A stretch of DNA of 64,000 nt from Candidatus Hydrothermarchaeum profundi (lineage in GTDB: Archaea > Hydrothermarchaeota > Hydrothermarchaeia > Hydrothermarchaeales > Hydrothermarchaeaceae), in NCBI GenBank assembly GCA_002011125.2, contig MTMF02000009.1, positions 160,001 through 224,000 of the forward strand, given 5' to 3'. The notes under the pieces were generated by a model. It was not told the DNA's origin, ran no database searches, and saw only the letters and a list, made by a program, of their open reading frames with translations. Made by a program: the position numbers and the translations under genes. Position 1 is the stretch's first letter. Every line of letters starts with the position of its first letter. Positions 7,845 through 18,622 of this stretch are shown piece after piece.

Positions 7845-8018
7845 TTGACCGTCTACAATGTAACCATATGGAAAGCAAAATGCCGTGTATGTGGTGAAAT
7901 CTTTTCTACTTGTCTAGAAGAAGAACTCAAACATTGTAATGAACCATGCGAAATAGCATTTGGTATTGAAAAAGAAATAGCTGTACCTAAGGTACCTTCC
8001 CGATTATTTCGTCCCTAA
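7845..8018 (+). CDS. 57-aa Cys-rich, desulforedoxin-like microprotein
   Basis: MTVYNVTIWKAKCRVCGEIFSTCLEEELKHCNEPCEIAFG...; TTTAAATA box at about 7802 and GGTGGTGA RBS; 3' end overlaps the mer 3' end. Confidence 0.55.
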   Translation: MTVYNVTIWKAKCRVCGEIFSTCLEEELKHCNEPCEIAFGIEKEIAVPKVPSRLFRP

Positions 8019-8964
8019 CGATTTCTAGAGACCTTTTTTTATTAGGACCTATAGGTGATCCTAATACTACTTGAGAAACACCAAGTTTCGAAATTTCTTC
8101 AATCCTCTGTAGGCAATCTGCTGGCGTTCCATAAATCGAGAAGCAATCCATCATCTGATCTGTGACAGATTCAAATGCTTTCTTAAATTTTCTTCTTTCG
8201 AGAAATTTCCTAATAGTTTCAGAATCTTCTTGAGATATATCATGCCTCTCTAATACAGCCTTGGGGGAACCTGCAACTATAAAGGCCACTATAGGCTCAG
8301 CTGCTCTTCTAGCTTTAATGGGATCAAAATCGACCGAAAAGCATGTGAAAGCAGATACATCGATTTCACCTCTATTACCTCTCCCTTTCTTTATCTGTTT
8401 TACCGCATATTCTAGGTCTCGCTTATGAGAGGCATTAACTAGAACTCCATCCCCTACACGACCAGCCATCTCAAGCATCTTAGGTCCTTGTGCACCTACA
8501 TATATTGGGATATCCCTATTAGCTTTGATATTTAAAGTAGCCCCTTGGATTTTAAAAATTTCACCATCAAAACTCACAGTTTCTCCTGCCAATAATCTTC
8601 TTATTATAGTAATGCTTTCTTCTACTGCGCTGACAGGGCTCTTCATCTCTATACCTAAGCAATTTAATGTAGCTCTGTCACCAGCCCCAATCCCTAGCAT
8701 AGCTCTTCCGCCTGAAACTCTATCAAGTGATAATAGTGCAGAAGCATTAAGGACCGGATTATATAAATAAGGATTTGTGACACCGGGACCTAGTAGAATC
8801 CTTTCAGTATAGTTTGCGATAGTAGTCAAAATTATATAAACGTCTTGATTGTTAAAGTGATGAGTCACCCAAATAGAATCAAAGCCAAACTTCTCTGCCA
8901 TTATGCCGTAACTTGCAATCTTCCAAAAATCCTCTCTAGGAACAAACTCAACTCCAAAGCGCAC
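7987..8964 (-). CDS. mer: F420-dependent methylene-H4MPT reductase
   Basis: MRFGVEFVP, GPGVTNPY, GIGAGD, GAQGPKM, INASH-like and GSPIGP motifs. It has THHFNN where Mer usually has TDHYNN. Confidence 0.88.
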   Translation of the reverse strand: MRFGVEFVPREDFWKIASYGIMAEKFGFDSIWVTHHFNNQDVYIILTTIANYTERILLGPGVTNPYLYNPVLNASALLSLDRVSGGRAMLGIGAGDRATLNCLGIEMKSPVSAVEESITIIRRLLAGETVSFDGEIFKIQGATLNIKANRDIPIYVGAQGPKMLEMAGRVGDGVLVNASHKRDLEYAVKQIKKGRGNRGEIDVSAFTCFSVDFDPIKARRAAEPIVAFIVAGSPKAVLERHDISQEDSETIRKFLERRKFKKAFESVTDQMMDCFSIYGTPADCLQRIEEISKLGVSQVVLGSPIGPNKKRSLEIVRDEIIGKVP

Positions 8965-12653: not shown

Positions 12654-13538
12654 CTACTCTAAAAGCTTCCTAAGATGAAAATGAACCTTCCCTAAAGTCC
12701 CGCCGTAATTGCCCGCCGTAATTTTTTTAACTCCATCAACTTCTGCGGCTGCCTTTATACCTTGCTTCATTGCTTCGCCTACTTTTTCCTCGGATATTCC
12801 ATCTATCACTATCTCTAATACTGCCCCAATTCCCTTAACTTTGCTGTCCTTTACTTTATCTGCGATAGTTGGACAGTATTTATCATTAGTAGACGCTATC
12901 ATAAACTTATATTTTGACCCGACTTTAGAGCCTGCTGCGCATACGCCTCCAGGGAATGGAGTTATAACCCCCTCTACTCCCTCTATAACACAAACAGCCT
13001 CCTCAGCTGCTCTTAGCGCAGATTTTTGATCTTTAGCTAGGATTATAAAATTACCGCCTGCAACGCCTTTAGCGATTCCAAGCTCTTTTTCAATAAGAAA
13101 ATCCCCCATCATAATGGGTATAGAAACCATCTCCCTACCCCCCACGCTCGTAGTGCTCTCATATCCGTCCCCAAAAAATCTCATCTTATATCCAACATCC
13201 AACTTCTCATCACTATCACAGTAATTGAAAACAGCTGCAGTCGGCGAAGTTAGTATGCATTGACCAATCCTTCCAATAAGTTCTTTAGTCATCTTTTTCT
13301 TAGATGCCCAAATCTGAATTACACAGCCAGGTCTACCGTCTGGAGTGCTCTCCGAGGGCAACATCCCCTCAATACCCGTCTCCGCAGAACATTCTATTAA
13401 AGAAGTTCCATAACCAACTGCCTCAGTAGCTGCGATTCTTGCCCATTTTTCATTTACAGCTGTTATCAAAATCCTAGAATAAAACCCAGTAAAAGCTTCC
13501 GCATACGTATCCTCAATCTCTACGCCATTTAATTTCAT
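12654..13538 (-). CDS. ftr: Formylmethanofuran:H4MPT formyltransferase
   Basis: IEDTYAEAF, TPDGRPG, RIGQCILT, GVAGGNF, GSKVGS, AGNYGG. Confidence 0.97.
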   Translation of the reverse strand: MKLNGVEIEDTYAEAFTGFYSRILITAVNEKWARIAATEAVGYGTSLIECSAETGIEGMLPSESTPDGRPGCVIQIWASKKKMTKELIGRIGQCILTSPTAAVFNYCDSDEKLDVGYKMRFFGDGYESTTSVGGREMVSIPIMMGDFLIEKELGIAKGVAGGNFIILAKDQKSALRAAEEAVCVIEGVEGVITPFPGGVCAAGSKVGSKYKFMIASTNDKYCPTIADKVKDSKVKGIGAVLEIVIDGISEEKVGEAMKQGIKAAAEVDGVKKITAGNYGGTLGKVHFHLRKLLE

Positions 13539-13562
13539 ACAGTAGAAGAAAATAGAAATACC

Positions 13563-14546
13563 TTAAAAAATCTTTCGTATGCCAAAAGTCTTTTCCCATC
13601 TTTCATCGACTTCAGCCTGTATTTTATTAATCAACTCATCGCTTAGATGCCTAAACCTCTTCTGCATCTTCAAATAATCCCTCACAGGCTTTTTAACTGT
13701 AGGCGTATAAGTTACCCTCATCTCTCCCTTCTCGACTTCATATAATAACCACATACCACAGTCTACCGCAAGACGAGCTACTTCAATACTTTTCTCCGAA
13801 GGAATACCCCACCCAGGAGTACATGGTGCAAGAACGTGAATATAAGCGGGCCCATCTATCGCTACAGCCTTTTTAACCTTCTCCATATAATCTAGAGGAA
13901 AAGCCACAGAGGCTGTCGCTACATAATCCACTCCATGAGCAACCATGATCGAAGGCATATCTTTCTTGGGTCTTTTATTTCCAAAAGATACCTTCCCAGC
14001 CGGAGAGGTTGTTGTTACCGCTCCAAAAGGCGTAGAACCGCTCCTCTGAATACCTGTATTCATATATGCCTCATTGTCATAGCAAATATAAGTCATATTA
14101 TGCCCCCTTTCCATAGCGCCACTAAGTGCTTGAAAACCTATATCAACGGTCCCCCCATCTCCACCAAAAGCTATGACATTAACCCCTTCCTTCTTCCCTA
14201 AAGCTTTCAAGGCAGCCTCAATACCACTTGCAACTGCTGCAGAGTTCTCGAATGCAACATGAATCCAAGGTATCTTCCACGCAGTTTGAGGATAGGGACT
14301 GGAGACTACTTCCATACATCCTGTGCACTGGGAAGCTACAGTATTAGCGCCGCTTGCTTTCAAAGCAAGCCGGAGAGCTATGGTGCCTCCACAGCCAGCG
14401 CAGGCTCTATGTCCGTAGGAAAACAGCTCCTCTTCGGATACTTCTTTTATATTCTGAGAAAACTTCCAACATCTATTGCTATACAAGTTTGCTCTGCAAA
14501 CGTGCCTACATTTTACATAAGCCGGGATATCTTCAACTATCTTCAT
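13563..14546 (-). CDS. porB: Pyruvate:ferredoxin oxidoreductase beta subunit with an N-terminal extension
   Basis: [33 protein letters not shown]; the start overlaps the porA stop (ATGA). Confidence 0.93.
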
Positions 14547-15706
14547 TCTTTCAACCCAATCCAATGCACTTCGTCAATATCTTCTTTAATCGCTTTTTTA
14601 CAGATTGAAATAATTTCCCTCACATTGTCCATAGAAATATCTCTGCCACCTAATCCTCCTACAAAGCCTAATAATTTAGGCCTATAGCTAGAGGGATACA
14701 GTGAAGCCTTAATCTCTGAGAAGAGCGCGCCTTCCCCAAGTCCTATAACTATATCTTTCTCTAATACGCCAACTACTTTAGCGTCCTTTAAAGCTTTTAA
14801 GACCTCTTCTTTTGGGAAAGGTCTGAAGACCCTAATCTTCAAGAGCCCCACTTTTTCATCTAAAGAATCGATTACCTCTTTAATCGTGCCTGCCACAGAG
14901 CCCATAGTAACAAGTAAAACTTCTGCATCGTCCGTATTGTACTCCTCAACAATGCCATAGCTCCTACCGGTAAGCTCGCCAAATTCTTCATCAACCCTCC
15001 TTATTACCTCAAAAGCCCTTTTCATAGCTTTTTCCTGCTCTATTCGGAATTCCATATAAGTTTCAGGATCTGCAAAAGCGCCTTGAGTCATAGGGTCAGA
15101 AGGGTCAAGATAAACCTGTGGCTCGTAAGGAGGTAAAAACTTCTCTACTTCTTCTTTATCTGGGATCTCTACTGGCTCAATTGTATGGGTTAGAACGAAT
15201 CCATCTAAGTTTACCATGACCGGAAGTAAGATATTTTTATCTTCAGCAATCTTATAGGCCTGCACAGTAGTATCCAACGCCTCCTGATTTGTCTCTACGT
15301 ACAATTGAATCCAACCAGTATCCCTCTCGGATATTGAGTCCTGCTGATCATTCCAAATGTTAATAGGGGCTGATAAGGCTCTATTGGCGTTAGCCATTAC
15401 GATAGGAAGCCTCATACCAGAGGCTATGAAAAGTACTTCATGCATTAGGGCCAGGCCTTGAGAAGAGGTAGCTGTAAAAACCCGGGCCCCGGTAGCACTA
15501 GCGCCAATACATGCACTCATCGCCGAATGCTCTGATTCAACCATTATATACTCCGCATTTAGTTCACCGTTTGCTATAAGTTCCGCTAGGTCTTCTACTA
15601 TATGCGTCTGAGGGGTAATAGGATATGCAGCAATAACTTGGACATCGCAAAGCCTTGCAGCTTCCGCAACACATCTACTTCCGTGGAGAACATCTCTAAC
15701 AGGCAT
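14543..15706 (-). CDS. porA: Pyruvate:ferredoxin oxidoreductase alpha subunit
   Basis: [22 protein letters not shown]; the start overlaps the porD stop. Confidence 0.95.
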
Positions 15707-15963
15707 TACTTCTCCTCCAATACCATTTTTATAGCCTCTGTAGGGCATTCATTTGCACAGATACCACACCCCTTACAATAATCATAATTGAAGCTGTACT
15801 CTCCATCTTTTCTTATTACAGACATATCAGGACAAAATATCCAACAACTTCCACAGTCTATACACTTCTCCATATCAATTACAGGCTTAAAAGTCCTCCA
15901 TCCACCTGTTTTAAGGTTCTTTGTACTGCCAATATCTTTTACATGCCCGCCAATAGGTCTCAT
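15706..15963 (-). CDS. porD: Pyruvate:ferredoxin oxidoreductase delta subunit (2x[4Fe-4S])
   Basis: [35 protein letters not shown]. Confidence 0.95.
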
Positions 15964-16505
15964 ACCGACCCTCCAGCAACTTCATAAGCTACCTCTACAG
16001 CTTTAGAATTCTTAGTAGCTAGTTTTTCAGGGAACCTCTTAACTACGGCTCTTTTTAATGAATCTAAGGTTACCTCCCCCGTAATCGCTGCAAATGCACC
16101 AAGCATAGCTGTATTCACTATTGGAACCCCCAGCACATCTAAAGCTATCTTAGTTGCATTTATCGTGTAAACCTCCGCACTAGTATTCAGATTAATTTCG
16201 CCAGGCTTCTTCTCTGTGTTGACTATAGCTTTCCCATTATTGCTCAGACCTTCTGCTACATTTATAACTTCTAATAAAGTAGGGTCTTGAACTACGATGT
16301 AATCCGGCTTATATATTTGGTTCCTTCTTCTTATAAAGTGGTCATCTATTCTTGCGAAAGCGGTTACTGGCGCGCCTCTTCTTTCAACGCCAAAAAAAGG
16401 GAATGCCTGTGAATACTTTCCATCATAAAATGCAGCTATTGCTAGTATTTCCGCCGCAGTAACTGCTCCTTGACCACCTCGTCCGTGAAACCTTATTTCT
16501 TTCAT
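15960..16505 (-). CDS. porC: Pyruvate:ferredoxin oxidoreductase gamma subunit
   Basis: [33 protein letters not shown]. Confidence 0.95.
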
Positions 16506-17632
16506 TCTTTATACCTCAGTTTCGGAATTGATGTTGAGTGAGAATAAATTGTTCCACTATGTCTCTTTAAATCATTGGCTACCGTTGAAACATAAGGAGT
16601 TGGTTTCCAAGGCTCAGGTCCCTTCCCAACAGAAATTACTTCGTCTATAATCCCTTTATCCAATGCGTATGTTAACAAAGCCGTAACCACACCGCCATCC
16701 TGGCCTTTTTCATGTATATGCGTATCCGCGGCCCTTGCAGCATAGATATTTAAACACTTACCAATTCCTTGAACTAATTTTGTTCCATTAAAAATCATCT
16801 CCTCAAACAGAAGCTGAGGGAGAGATGTTCTGGGACAAGCAAGATAACATTCAAAACATTTTTCTTTTGAACACTCATTAGATAACTCGGGTCTTTGGTC
16901 AATTACTTTTACGCAATGATCAGGACATACCGCTTCACATGCACCACAGGATATACATGCACCAGCATCAATTACATCACGCTCCAAAGCGAAGAAGTCT
17001 TTGCCCTCCGCCGCTTTTTTTATCTTCTCCAAGTTTTTTTCTCCTAATGTCTTAATATGAAGCGGCGTTATTCCTATTTTGTTTCTCCGATTGGCCTCGG
17101 CGAGATTCTCTTTTTTCTTCTCATCAGCGATTTTTCTGATTAGAGATACCCCTGGCTTGACTTCCTCGATAGGCTTCAACTCGATATATCCCTCTTTCGC
17201 AGCCTTATCAACTAACTCTTGTCCTTTTTTAGATCTAGTTATCACAGTACTCCATTTCGGGGGGGTTCCAACGGCTCCAATCGAAACATCCGCTAACTCC
17301 GCAGTAAAATCTATACAAACCTGACAGCCTATCCTGACATATGGCTTAGATTTCTCTAACGGAATTTCTCTCTTTTCTCCATTTATGTAGGCAATTATGT
17401 TTTTCTTTTTAATATCAAATTTATCCACATCATTGAGCTTAACACCGAAATCGTCCTCTACAAGAGCTCTAAAACATGTATACGCCCAGTTTTCTCTGCA
17501 GAATAAGCCGATTTGTAGATTTAGATTTTTTTTCCACTCTTGATCTACTAATGCTTCGATTTTTCTTAGAGCTTCTATATCACAGGGGAGTCCTACGAAA
17601 GCAGTTTTCATTTGATCTACCTCGATTGTCAT
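16502..17632 (-). CDS. FrhB/FpoF-family F420-binding flavo-Fe-S protein with circularly permuted domain order (FrhB_C, ferredoxin, FrhB_N)
   Basis: Begins with AFVGLPC...IGLFC...[17 protein letters not shown], then [12 protein letters not shown] and CFECYLACP, and ends with [11 protein letters not shown]...WKP...SGTIYS. Confidence 0.85.
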
Positions 17633-17662
17633 AATTGATAATGCTAATTTATAAAAAGATTT

Positions 17663-18622
17663 CTAAAAATCTACTTCAATGCCCAGAAAGTCTCTTCTAC
17701 CTCTTAAAATATCCCTTGCAATTTCAGCGCTACCCATCGCAGCAGCATAGCCATTAATTCTATAAACTGGAGCAAACTTACTTAAAGTCTCTTTCAAAGG
17801 AATAAAAACCGAATCTTTGAATCCTGCAGAACCCGTTATAACAAATGCGTCCGGTGCTACCTCAGAAAGAAACCCAAATATCTCCATTTTTACGCTCATA
17901 ATTAATGATTTCAAACTTAATTCAGCTCTGCCTTCCCCTCTTAAGATTTCATTTGGCGATAATCGTGAAATTTTAATAGCCCCAGAAGAATAAAAAGCTT
18001 CATTCGCCGTTATCTCGCCGTTATCAATTCTTCTTATTGCCTCAAGATCCAAAGGCCCATGCTCAAGACCTATAGCCCCTATACATGCATCCATAGCCCC
18101 AAAAAAACGTCCATCTTTTATAACAATAGTTACTGTGTTAGAACTAATATCCGAAATAATCAAGTTCCTAGCATCTAAGTCCTTATTCGCCCTTAAATAT
18201 GCATGATAACTTAAACTTACTTTCTCAGAACTGGCACAATGCGAGTAAAGAGCCCGAAATCTCTCATCTAACACTTCTAACCCTCTATGTAACCCAGGAA
18301 TAACTACCGCCCTGAGACCTGAATTAGCTATTTCATCATATACCCTCGTGCCACCACCTATGTATTTTCCAACTTTCTTTTCAAGAACCCCCCGATTCTT
18401 AACCTTCCGAATATCAGTTATTTTAGTTATAGCGTCCCCCATCGAATATGTTATCCCAACTAATTCTATATCTTTTAAAGAGAAATGCTTCTCGATTTCT
18501 TTTAAAATAGAAACATTAAGAACCTCTTCTCTACGAAGTTCAAACATTATATTGTCTGGTATAATGCAAAATCTTACTGCTTGCGTACCATGATCCACGC
18601 CTAGTGTGGCTAATACATTCAC
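17663..18622 (-). CDS. Methanogenesis marker protein 12 (UPF0285, ASKHA-type kinase fold)
   Basis: GVDHGT, YSMGD, GGGTRVYDEI, IPGLHR, YSHCAS.EK and SDISSNTVT motifs. Confidence 0.85.
   Translation of the reverse strand: MNVLATLGVDHGTQAVRFCIIPDNIMFELRREEVLNVSILKEIEKHFSLKDIELVGITYSMGDAITKITDIRKVKNRGVLEKKVGKYIGGGTRVYDEIANSGLRAVVIPGLHRGLEVLDERFRALYSHCASSEKVSLSYHAYLRANKDLDARNLIISDISSNTVTIVIKDGRFFGAMDACIGAIGLEHGPLDLEAIRRIDNGEITANEAFYSSGAIKISRLSPNEILRGEGRAELSLKSLIMSVKMEIFGFLSEVAPDAFVITGSAGFKDSVFIPLKETLSKFAPVYRINGYAAAMGSAEIARDILRGRRDFLGIEVDF

Follow-up and report, generated by a model that had tools for sequence, protein, structure and literature searches.

A circularly permuted FrhB-family flavoprotein gene at the head of a pyruvate oxidoreductase operon in Candidatus Hydrothermarchaeum profundi

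Gene content and layout of the locus

We analysed a 64,000-nucleotide (nt) stretch of the Candidatus Hydrothermarchaeum profundi genome (contig MTMF02000009.1, positions 160,001 to 224,000; hereafter the window), and in particular a gene for an FrhB/FpoF-family flavoprotein, here called frhB', whose domains stand in a rotated order and which lies directly upstream of the genes for the four subunits of pyruvate:ferredoxin oxidoreductase (POR). The genes mmp12-frhB'-porC-porD-porA-porB-ftr are all collinear on the minus strand (Table 1), and the products PorA, PorB, PorC, PorD and Ftr each exceed curated NCBIfam cut-offs. The stop codon of frhB' and the start codon of porC share an ATGA that can be read directly in the sequence, the por genes overlap one another, and the open reading frame (ORF) coordinates leave 24 nt between porB and ftr, all as the initial annotation had described. 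A 30-nt spacer separates frhB' from mmp12, which may be co-transcribed with the frhB'-por operon.

Rotated domain order of the frhB' protein

Pfam places an FrhB_C domain first, a 2x[4Fe-4S] ferredoxin (Fd) domain second and an FrhB_N domain last in the frhB' protein, in agreement with the initial reading that it holds the parts of FpoF/FqoF in rotated order, with PF04432 ahead of PF04422. The motifs quoted for that reading are all present: VGLPC (C17), GLFC (C45) and CQVC (C103, C106) in the first domain, and GQDGGVVT (310-317), WKP (342-344) and SGTIYS (359-364) in the last. In alignments, C17, C45, C103 and C106 fall on the cysteines of the PC, C-x-EN and C-x-x-C-x-D motifs in solved FrhB and in 8RIU chain B, the carbon monoxide dehydrogenase (CODH) zeta subunit of Ca. 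Ethanoperedens, and together with the QDGG motif these core [4Fe-4S] cysteines are invariant across 111 homologue sequences. In the ferredoxin-like domain, C226, C229, C232 and C266 are invariant in the homologue alignments; the domain matches the ferredoxin domain at the N-terminus of 8RIU_B.

Alignments to canonical proteins fall into two swapped stretches. Against 8RIU_B, residues 10-178 match 178-344 and residues 213-367 match 9-162 (E 2.8e-56); against FrhB chains, residues 291-372 match 4-85 and residues 9-188 match 96-277; and against the genome's canonical paralogue (alignment numbering converted by -10), residues 11-196 match 191-378 of 380 and residues 215-373 match 25-180. Whether the reference is 8RIU_B, FrhB or the genome's own paralogues, the two stretches together span nearly the full frhB' protein. 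It follows that the new termini lie at the N/C domain junction, between canonical residues ~180 and 191, and that the old C-terminal tail joins the old N-terminal leader at about residues 197-214. Judged by these alignments, the frhB' protein is a genuine circular permutation with its break exactly at the canonical N/C domain junction, as the initial annotation had proposed. The rotation concerns architecture and not homology to the FrhB/FdhB/FpoF superfamily.

An AlphaFold2 model built with 111 homologues is compact (predicted local distance difference test score 94.5, predicted template modelling score 0.93). Its C half superposes on FrhB 9r51_B with Z 16.3 and a root-mean-square deviation of 2.1 Å over 189 residues (model 4-192 on chain residues 91-282), and on FrhB/FpoF-type chains with Z 15.5-16.3; for 8RIU_B, the CODH zeta subunit, the value is Z 14.0. 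The C-Fd part is collinear with FdhB (model 7-279 on 8rvu_E 86-370, Z 13.2), and HCAR (5dqr) matches at Z 10.4. Foldseek and VIA align sequentially and the superposition covers only the C half of the model, as is expected of a permuted protein. The whole fold is presumably retained, and an adjacent position of the new termini would follow from their mapping to consecutive FrhB residues (~85-88 and 91-96). On the putative binding of flavin adenine dinucleotide (FAD) and coenzyme F420, the evidence consists of the conserved QDGG, WxP and GTxY motifs and the similarity of fold. A complex prediction of PorC, PorD and the frhB' protein, run without PorA and PorB, gave a score of 0.01 (mark 0.32) and speaks neither for nor against binding.

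Only part of the initial description of the gene start is retained. The TATA-box-like octamer TTTATAAA and the 30-nt spacer exist as described, but a leaderless start at 17632 is doubtful, because 9 of 17 aligned homologues begin exactly at the column of M8 (the other 8 begin earlier), the database gene call gives a product of 369 amino acids (aa), and a GAGGT lies 7 nt upstream of the second ATG. From these sequence features, M8 at 17611 is the likelier start.

Table 1. Features of the frhB'-por locus in window coordinates, with the parts of the frhB' protein
Feature	Residues	Position	Strand	Basis or remark
Methanogenesis marker 12 gene (mmp12)		17663-18622	minus	TIGR03281, 353.2 bits vs cut-off 180.85
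TTTATAAA, putative TATA-box-like octamer in the spacer after mmp12		17648-17655	minus	read directly in sequence
GAGGT, Shine-Dalgarno-like		17619-17623	minus	7 nt before ATG at 17611; read directly in sequence
Permuted FrhB/FpoF-family flavoprotein gene (frhB')		16502-17632	minus	376 aa from first ATG; probably 369 aa from ATG at 17611
FrhB_FdhB_C (PF04432)	8-157	17162-17611	minus	Pfam, 148.6 bits vs cut-off 23.3, E 1.6e-43
New junction: canonical C-terminal tail joined to canonical N-terminal leader	158-217	16982-17161	minus	alignment to canonical proteins
Ferredoxin-like domain, eight Cys (226-266)	218-270	16823-16981	minus	Fer4-type Pfam matches, weak, all below gathering scores
FrhB_FdhB_N (PF04422)	296-367	16532-16747	minus	Pfam, 82.4 bits vs cut-off 22, E 2.6e-23
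porC (gamma subunit)		15960-16505	minus	NF006321, 293.6 bits vs cut-off 225
porD (delta subunit, 2x[4Fe-4S])		15706-15963	minus	NF040684 PorD_Arch, 127.3 bits vs cut-off 120
porA (alpha subunit)		14543-15748	minus	NF040682 PorA_Arch, 606.9 bits vs cut-off 550
porB (beta subunit, thiamine pyrophosphate-binding)		13563-14564	minus	NF008819, 471.1 bits vs cut-off 405
ftr, formylmethanofuran:tetrahydromethanopterin (H4MPT) formyltransferase		12654-13538	minus	NF002554, 426 bits vs cut-off 297

Conservation and origin of the permuted form

The frhB' frame runs open through 386 codons between its two bounding stops. Among 1822 matches, 113 of the best 120 listed homologues, from many assemblies, are collinear with the frhB' protein across 94% or more of its length, with identities of 37-71% when the window's own 100% entry (P0002) is left out, and the collinear homologues are mostly annotated 'F420 hydrogenase subunit beta'. 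Together with the compact model, the open frame and these homologues bear out the initial claim of an intact gene. An error of assembly, or the decay of a tandem duplication down to a fragment, is virtually negligible as an explanation; nothing was found in its favour, and against it stand the open frame, the collinear homologues in many independent assemblies, the recurrence of the gene across its phylum (see below) and a confident, single-domain-like model. Mis-assembly was rejected on conservation alone, without reads.

At E<=1e-3, 3332 proteins (50%-identity cluster representatives) match, and the best 150 of these comprise 16 permuted and 134 canonical proteins. For the phylogeny, the Fd-N and C halves were aligned separately and then concatenated, which gave 153 rows, 27 of them permuted; 13 rows with short coverage of one half were dropped (including the short proteins of FrhB type that lack the ferredoxin domain, two fragments of permuted proteins and the third canonical paralogue of the genome), and the tree leaves out the FrhB6 of ANME-1 archaea. 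In a quick IQ-TREE tree, 26 of the 27 permuted rows cluster and row P0126 splits off, while the subclade of por-type and Methanobacteriaceae-type permuted proteins has a Shimodaira-Hasegawa-like approximate likelihood-ratio support of 93. A constrained search that held the 27 permuted rows together scored 114 log-likelihood units above the free search (approximately unbiased test, p-AU 0.982), so that a single origin is the best tree found; two origins, with P0126 apart, were dropped on the same result. The canonical rows nearest the permuted clade include the clade of the genome's CODH-linked paralogue.

The Fd-N-C, N-C-Fd and C-Fd-N arrangements are rotations of one ring, and as the parent arrangement sequence similarity favours the FpoF/zeta type over FdhB (1e-56 vs 1e-17). 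The duplication and trimming first suggested as the origin of the gene is plausible, but no tandem intermediate was seen among the proteins examined, and the C-Fd part is collinear with FdhB too. No description of an FrhB permutation was found in the literature texts searched, a scope that excludes most subscription journals, figures and PDF supplements; the domain order may be shown in S16 Fig of PMC9012536 and in Figs 6 and S4 of PMC3448663.

Linkage to por in related genomes

Homologues were placed at 80 genome loci, 17 of them at an identity of at least 45%. In 13 of these 17 close loci, porC-porD-porA-porB lies directly downstream of the permuted gene, a count that includes L009, where the contig ends within porA and porC-porD-porA is visible; two loci (L008 and L024) are not por-linked and two are on contigs too short to tell. 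The 13 por-linked loci belong to metagenome-assembled genomes (MAGs) of Hydrothermarchaeota and Pyrohabitans and to one Archaeoglobaceae MAG (L028), and the named loci closest to the frhB' protein are from Hydrothermarchaeota. A collinear homologue (E<=1e-40) occurs in 32 of 38 Hydrothermarchaeota species genomes; the count is 20 of 21 both for high-quality genomes and for genera. At 22 of the 29 best non-self loci in the phylum, porC-porD-porA stands directly downstream, and three are too short. The 29-locus and 17-locus sets overlap and come from related genomes, and they are not independent counts. The survey of por co-occurrence that the initial annotation called for thus finds the linkage conserved in Hydrothermarchaeota, while the ftr linkage, which was part of the same picture, is kept in only 4 of the 13 por-linked close loci, where ftr follows porB.

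The gene mmp12 is found upstream of frhB' in three close loci (L006, L007 and L017) and in five phylum loci (L125, L126, L137, L143 and L145). In four genomes of another phylum (L104, L106, L109 and L119), porC follows mmp12 immediately, without an intervening frhB gene, and the permuted gene therefore looks as if it was inserted into an older mmp12-por arrangement. This association hints at a POR-related role for the mmp12 protein, whose function is unassigned.

The phylum to which the Archaeoglobaceae MAG (G001) belongs was covered by 301 genomes, of which G001 alone gave a collinear match at E<=1e-40, and among the 30 best PorC loci of that phylum only G001 has an FrhB gene upstream of porC. 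The por-linked permuted gene of this MAG (G001:C1:27662-28702 = L028:6001-7041) carries one in-frame TGA, which may be a sequencing error, the mark of a pseudogene or a recoded codon.

Other partners of the permuted clade

Half of the loci, 40 of 80, are of a Methanobacteriaceae type at 34-41% identity, in which the permuted gene comes after a GATase gene and is flanked by the glutamate synthase genes for the GXGXG and the FMN domain. In a Hydrothermarchaeota MAG (L024:3570-7095), a permuted FrhB gene with a 46% identical product directly follows iorA (POR_N + TPP_C + Fer4) and iorB, which indicates that the permuted module was also recruited to indolepyruvate oxidoreductase (IOR). In Ca. Pyrohabitans sp. 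JdFR-17 (L063:1105-7089), a permuted paralogue ends an operon of napA, an unknown gene, napG-like, napH-like and napD genes, followed by a multihaem cytochrome gene; from its gene content this operon is a candidate F420H2-linked nitrate reductase. Methanobrevibacter permuted copies lack an obvious redox neighbour. The permuted clade as a whole is therefore not por-specific, and of the initial proposal of a dedicated POR module it is the conserved por linkage in relatives that stands. The gene neighbourhoods fit an FrhB family that behaves as a plug-in F420 module for Fe-S enzymes, and the permuted relatives beside glutamate synthase, iorAB, nap and, in one orthologous locus (L142), followed by mtd, support this reading.

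The host genome

The host genome (2.19 Mb, 97.65% complete) contains two mer genes along with the F420 biosynthesis genes cofH and cofD, and no mcrA was found in it at that completeness; from this gene content the host makes and uses F420 and is not a methanogen. For Hydrothermarchaeota, a published proposal is that they live oxidatively in the manner of Archaeoglobus, with Fqo and menaquinone (PMC6775978). One of the two mer genes, whose product is an F420-dependent methylene-H4MPT reductase (416 bits), lies in the window at 8002-8958 on the minus strand, the same strand as ftr and about 3.7 kb downstream of it. A second ftr paralogue, 46% identical to the ftr of the por operon, is located at G000 C9:717870-718736.

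A profile search, with which tblastn agrees, finds the porA of the operon to be the only POR_N-containing gene in the genome. There are four other FrhB paralogues, namely a second permuted one without a redox neighbour and three canonical ones beside Fe-S enzymes. The first canonical paralogue (L087:2167-7854) is clustered with genes for a 1004-aa HdrA-like protein, MvhD (FlpD) and a CCG/Fer4 HdrBC-like protein. Another, in the Fd-N-C order (L087:7990-12001; G000 C9:304986-308997), is directly upstream of cdhA (Prismane family) and cdhB (epsilon). The third (L088:595-7015) lies with a FAD-binding AprA-like gene, a small ferredoxin gene, ATP sulfurylase and two NIR_SIR sulfite-reductase-like genes, a set that resembles an F420-dependent sulfite reduction system of the Fsr kind, split up and joined to genes of sulfate activation. 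About 1.16 Mb from frhB', a nuo/fpo-like operon (L152:6389-16397; G000 C9:1336388-1346396) comprises A, B, C, an unassigned 129-aa ORF, D, H, I, J, J, K, L, M and N; it has no E/F/G subunit genes and no FpoF/FqoF gene, and an electron input module is not encoded at the locus.

Proposed function and alternatives

We consider it probable, with some reserve, that the frhB' protein is an F420-reducing partner or subunit of POR that works in the oxidative direction. Made together with PorCDAB, it would serve as a fifth subunit or dedicated partner of the enzyme. Electrons derived from pyruvate would exit through the PorD clusters and pass first to the ferredoxin domain, then to the core [4Fe-4S] cluster and on to FAD, which would reduce F420, and the host's only POR would be a pyruvate:F420 oxidoreductase instead of a ferredoxin-linked enzyme. 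The F420H2 so formed would supply the H4MPT pathway and perhaps also the Nuo/Fpo-like complex. F420 as the substrate, contact with POR and the direction of the electrons are assigned here by analogy: a flow from the PorD clusters to F420 is most plausible because solved and assayed FrhB-like complexes, the CODH and Fwd of Ethanoperedens, work in this way.

Observations on gene position, energetics and cofactor use weigh against this assignment. An orthologue lies clearly apart from por at 4 of the 29 phylum loci (L121, L127, L128 and L142) and also at L008, and an obligate role as a POR subunit is therefore not universal. Relatives of this kind would also be explained if the frhB' protein were a free, soluble ferredoxin:F420 oxidoreductase, co-transcribed to re-oxidise POR-reduced ferredoxin or to equilibrate the pools. 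FpoF can act as such a soluble enzyme, and the presence of the same clade beside several partner enzymes, and as an orphan in the Methanobrevibacter loci and in the host genome, points the same way. We nevertheless regard this alternative, the strongest competitor of our assignment, as unlikely, in view of the ATGA translational coupling with porC, the fixed place directly upstream of porC in 22 of 29 relatives, and the stable binding of solved FrhB-like modules to their partner enzymes via the ferredoxin domain (PMC11493965).

The energetics bear on the direction of electron flow. The standard potential of F420 is about -340 mV and that of the acetyl-CoA+CO2/pyruvate couple about -500 mV, so that pyruvate oxidation with F420 is downhill and the reverse about 160 mV uphill; by these potentials F420H2 alone cannot drive pyruvate synthesis. 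Since the genome has a sole POR, an enzyme that is oxidative only would leave pyruvate synthesis from acetyl-CoA unexplained if the host is autotrophic. It is quite improbable that the module feeds F420H2 electrons into POR for anabolic pyruvate synthesis, which requires flavin-based bifurcation or other energetic coupling. The sole POR stands in a genome with CODH and the H4MPT pathway, where pyruvate synthesis from acetyl-CoA may be needed, and the homologous module in glutamate synthase clusters is expected to oxidise F420H2 (PMC3448663, PMC3087415). Besides the uphill step, the operon encodes no second acceptor or extra bifurcation partner, and bifurcation by FrhB-type flavoproteins has no precedent in the literature consulted. 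A bolder extension, which we hold to be improbable, would make the sole POR a five-subunit, bidirectional pyruvate:F420 oxidoreductase with bifurcation-like FAD coupling, placing pyruvate synthesis, H4MPT C1 metabolism, to which the ftr of the operon belongs, and respiration on one F420 pool without free ferredoxin; the rotation would then be what enables the module to plug in to POR, IOR, glutamate synthase and Nap.

Cofactor use can be read in more than one way as well. Some members of the FrhB family, among them HCAR, do not use F420. The frhB' protein falls under the NCBIfam equivalog cut-offs for FrhB (TIGR03289, 239.8 vs 331.5) and FpoF (NF040616, 133.1 vs 475), and purified methanogen POR did not use F420 (cited in PMC9012536). 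The family membership of HCAR and the missed cut-offs would be accommodated by an FrhB-fold flavoprotein that, like HCAR, does not use F420 and serves some other POR-linked redox reaction. This is very improbable, as the closest solved sequence relatives are all F420 enzymes (8RIU_B at 2.8e-56, FrhB at ~1e-54, Fsr at ~1e-42), the host genome makes and uses F420, and the L142 orthologue is followed by mtd. F420 reduction at the expense of pyruvate oxidation is the reading that we favour.

Significance

The usual view of POR is that it depends strictly on ferredoxin or flavodoxin. Coupling of POR to F420, if true, would change the reconstruction of carbon and electron flow for Hydrothermarchaeota and similar Wood-Ljungdahl archaea, and it would add a third central enzyme to CODH and Fwd, for which F420 reduction was recently demonstrated. 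Published reconstructions read these genes as hydrogenase beta subunits (PMC6775978). In sequences, the permutation itself cleanly marks out one widespread clade of F420 modules, whose members have uniformly received the annotation 'F420 hydrogenase subunit beta', and this marker shows one rotated module recruited to several Fe-S enzymes. The significance is limited in that the coupling idea is in print for ANME-1 and that the activity here is a prediction.

Comparison with known systems

In Ca. Ethanoperedens, an FrhB-like subunit anchored by a ferredoxin domain makes CODH and Fwd reduce F420, as has been solved and assayed (PMC11493965). The CODH zeta subunit of that organism (8RIU chain B) is the best solved sequence relative of the frhB' protein. 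Both zeta and FwdI (8RJA chain E) resemble the frhB' protein in combining a 2x[4Fe-4S] ferredoxin domain with a FAD/[4Fe-4S] F420-reductase core. Each has its gene next to that of a normally ferredoxin-using enzyme and is bound to this enzyme, and frhB' likewise adjoins genes for a ferredoxin-type oxidoreductase. The difference is one of order and partner: zeta and FwdI are canonical (Fd, N, C), whereas the frhB' protein runs C, Fd, N and its partner would be POR. The host's canonical FrhB paralogue linked to cdhA and cdhB shares the arrangement of the Ethanoperedens F420-reducing CODH and of FrhB7 of ANME-1.

The idea of an F420-coupled POR is already published for ANME-1; what is new here is the rotated form of the module, in Hydrothermarchaeota, at a known type of partner. 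In ANME-1 and Syntrophoarchaeum, FrhB6 genes adjoin porB/A/D/G in Por clusters, and it has been proposed that pyruvate oxidation there serves to reduce F420 (Chadwick et al., 2022; PMC9012536). Going by the locus tags given there, the order in Syntrophoarchaeum is FrhB6-PorG-PorD-PorA-PorB, as in the host, whereas the ANME-1 tags put FrhB6 next to PorB, unlike in the host. The single row examined in the S1 Data of that paper (Fig16.faa), the FrhB6 of ANME-1 GB60, has the canonical order, unlike the frhB' protein.

The FrhB-like protein of the Methanobacteriaceae glutamate synthase loci, taken here to be the FGltS(II)-alpha or MTH193-type subunit of the putative F420-dependent glutamate synthase of Methanobacteriales, belongs to the same permuted clade and is collinear with the frhB' protein over its full length; the glutamate synthase loci were equated with MTH193/FGltS(II) through the papers' descriptions and not by sequence comparison (PMC3087415, PMC3448663). 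The alpha subunit of this putative F420-dependent glutamate synthase is described as one that 'departs significantly' in primary sequence (one of PMC3087415 and PMC3448663). In comparison with the frhB' protein, this type is paired with another enzyme, and its electrons presumably run the other way.

FpoF/FqoF and FrhB share with the frhB' protein the same two Pfam domains and the same four cluster cysteines, in an order that is rotated in the frhB' protein. Unlike the FrhB and FpoF genes, frhB' is not beside frhAG or a nuo/fpo-like operon, and its neighbours are mmp12 and porCDAB. FdhB, the beta subunit of F420-dependent formate dehydrogenase, carries its ferredoxin domain after the C domain, as the frhB' protein does, with the N domain at the other end; its sequence similarity to the frhB' protein is much weaker (E ~1e-17), and no fdhA lies near frhB'.

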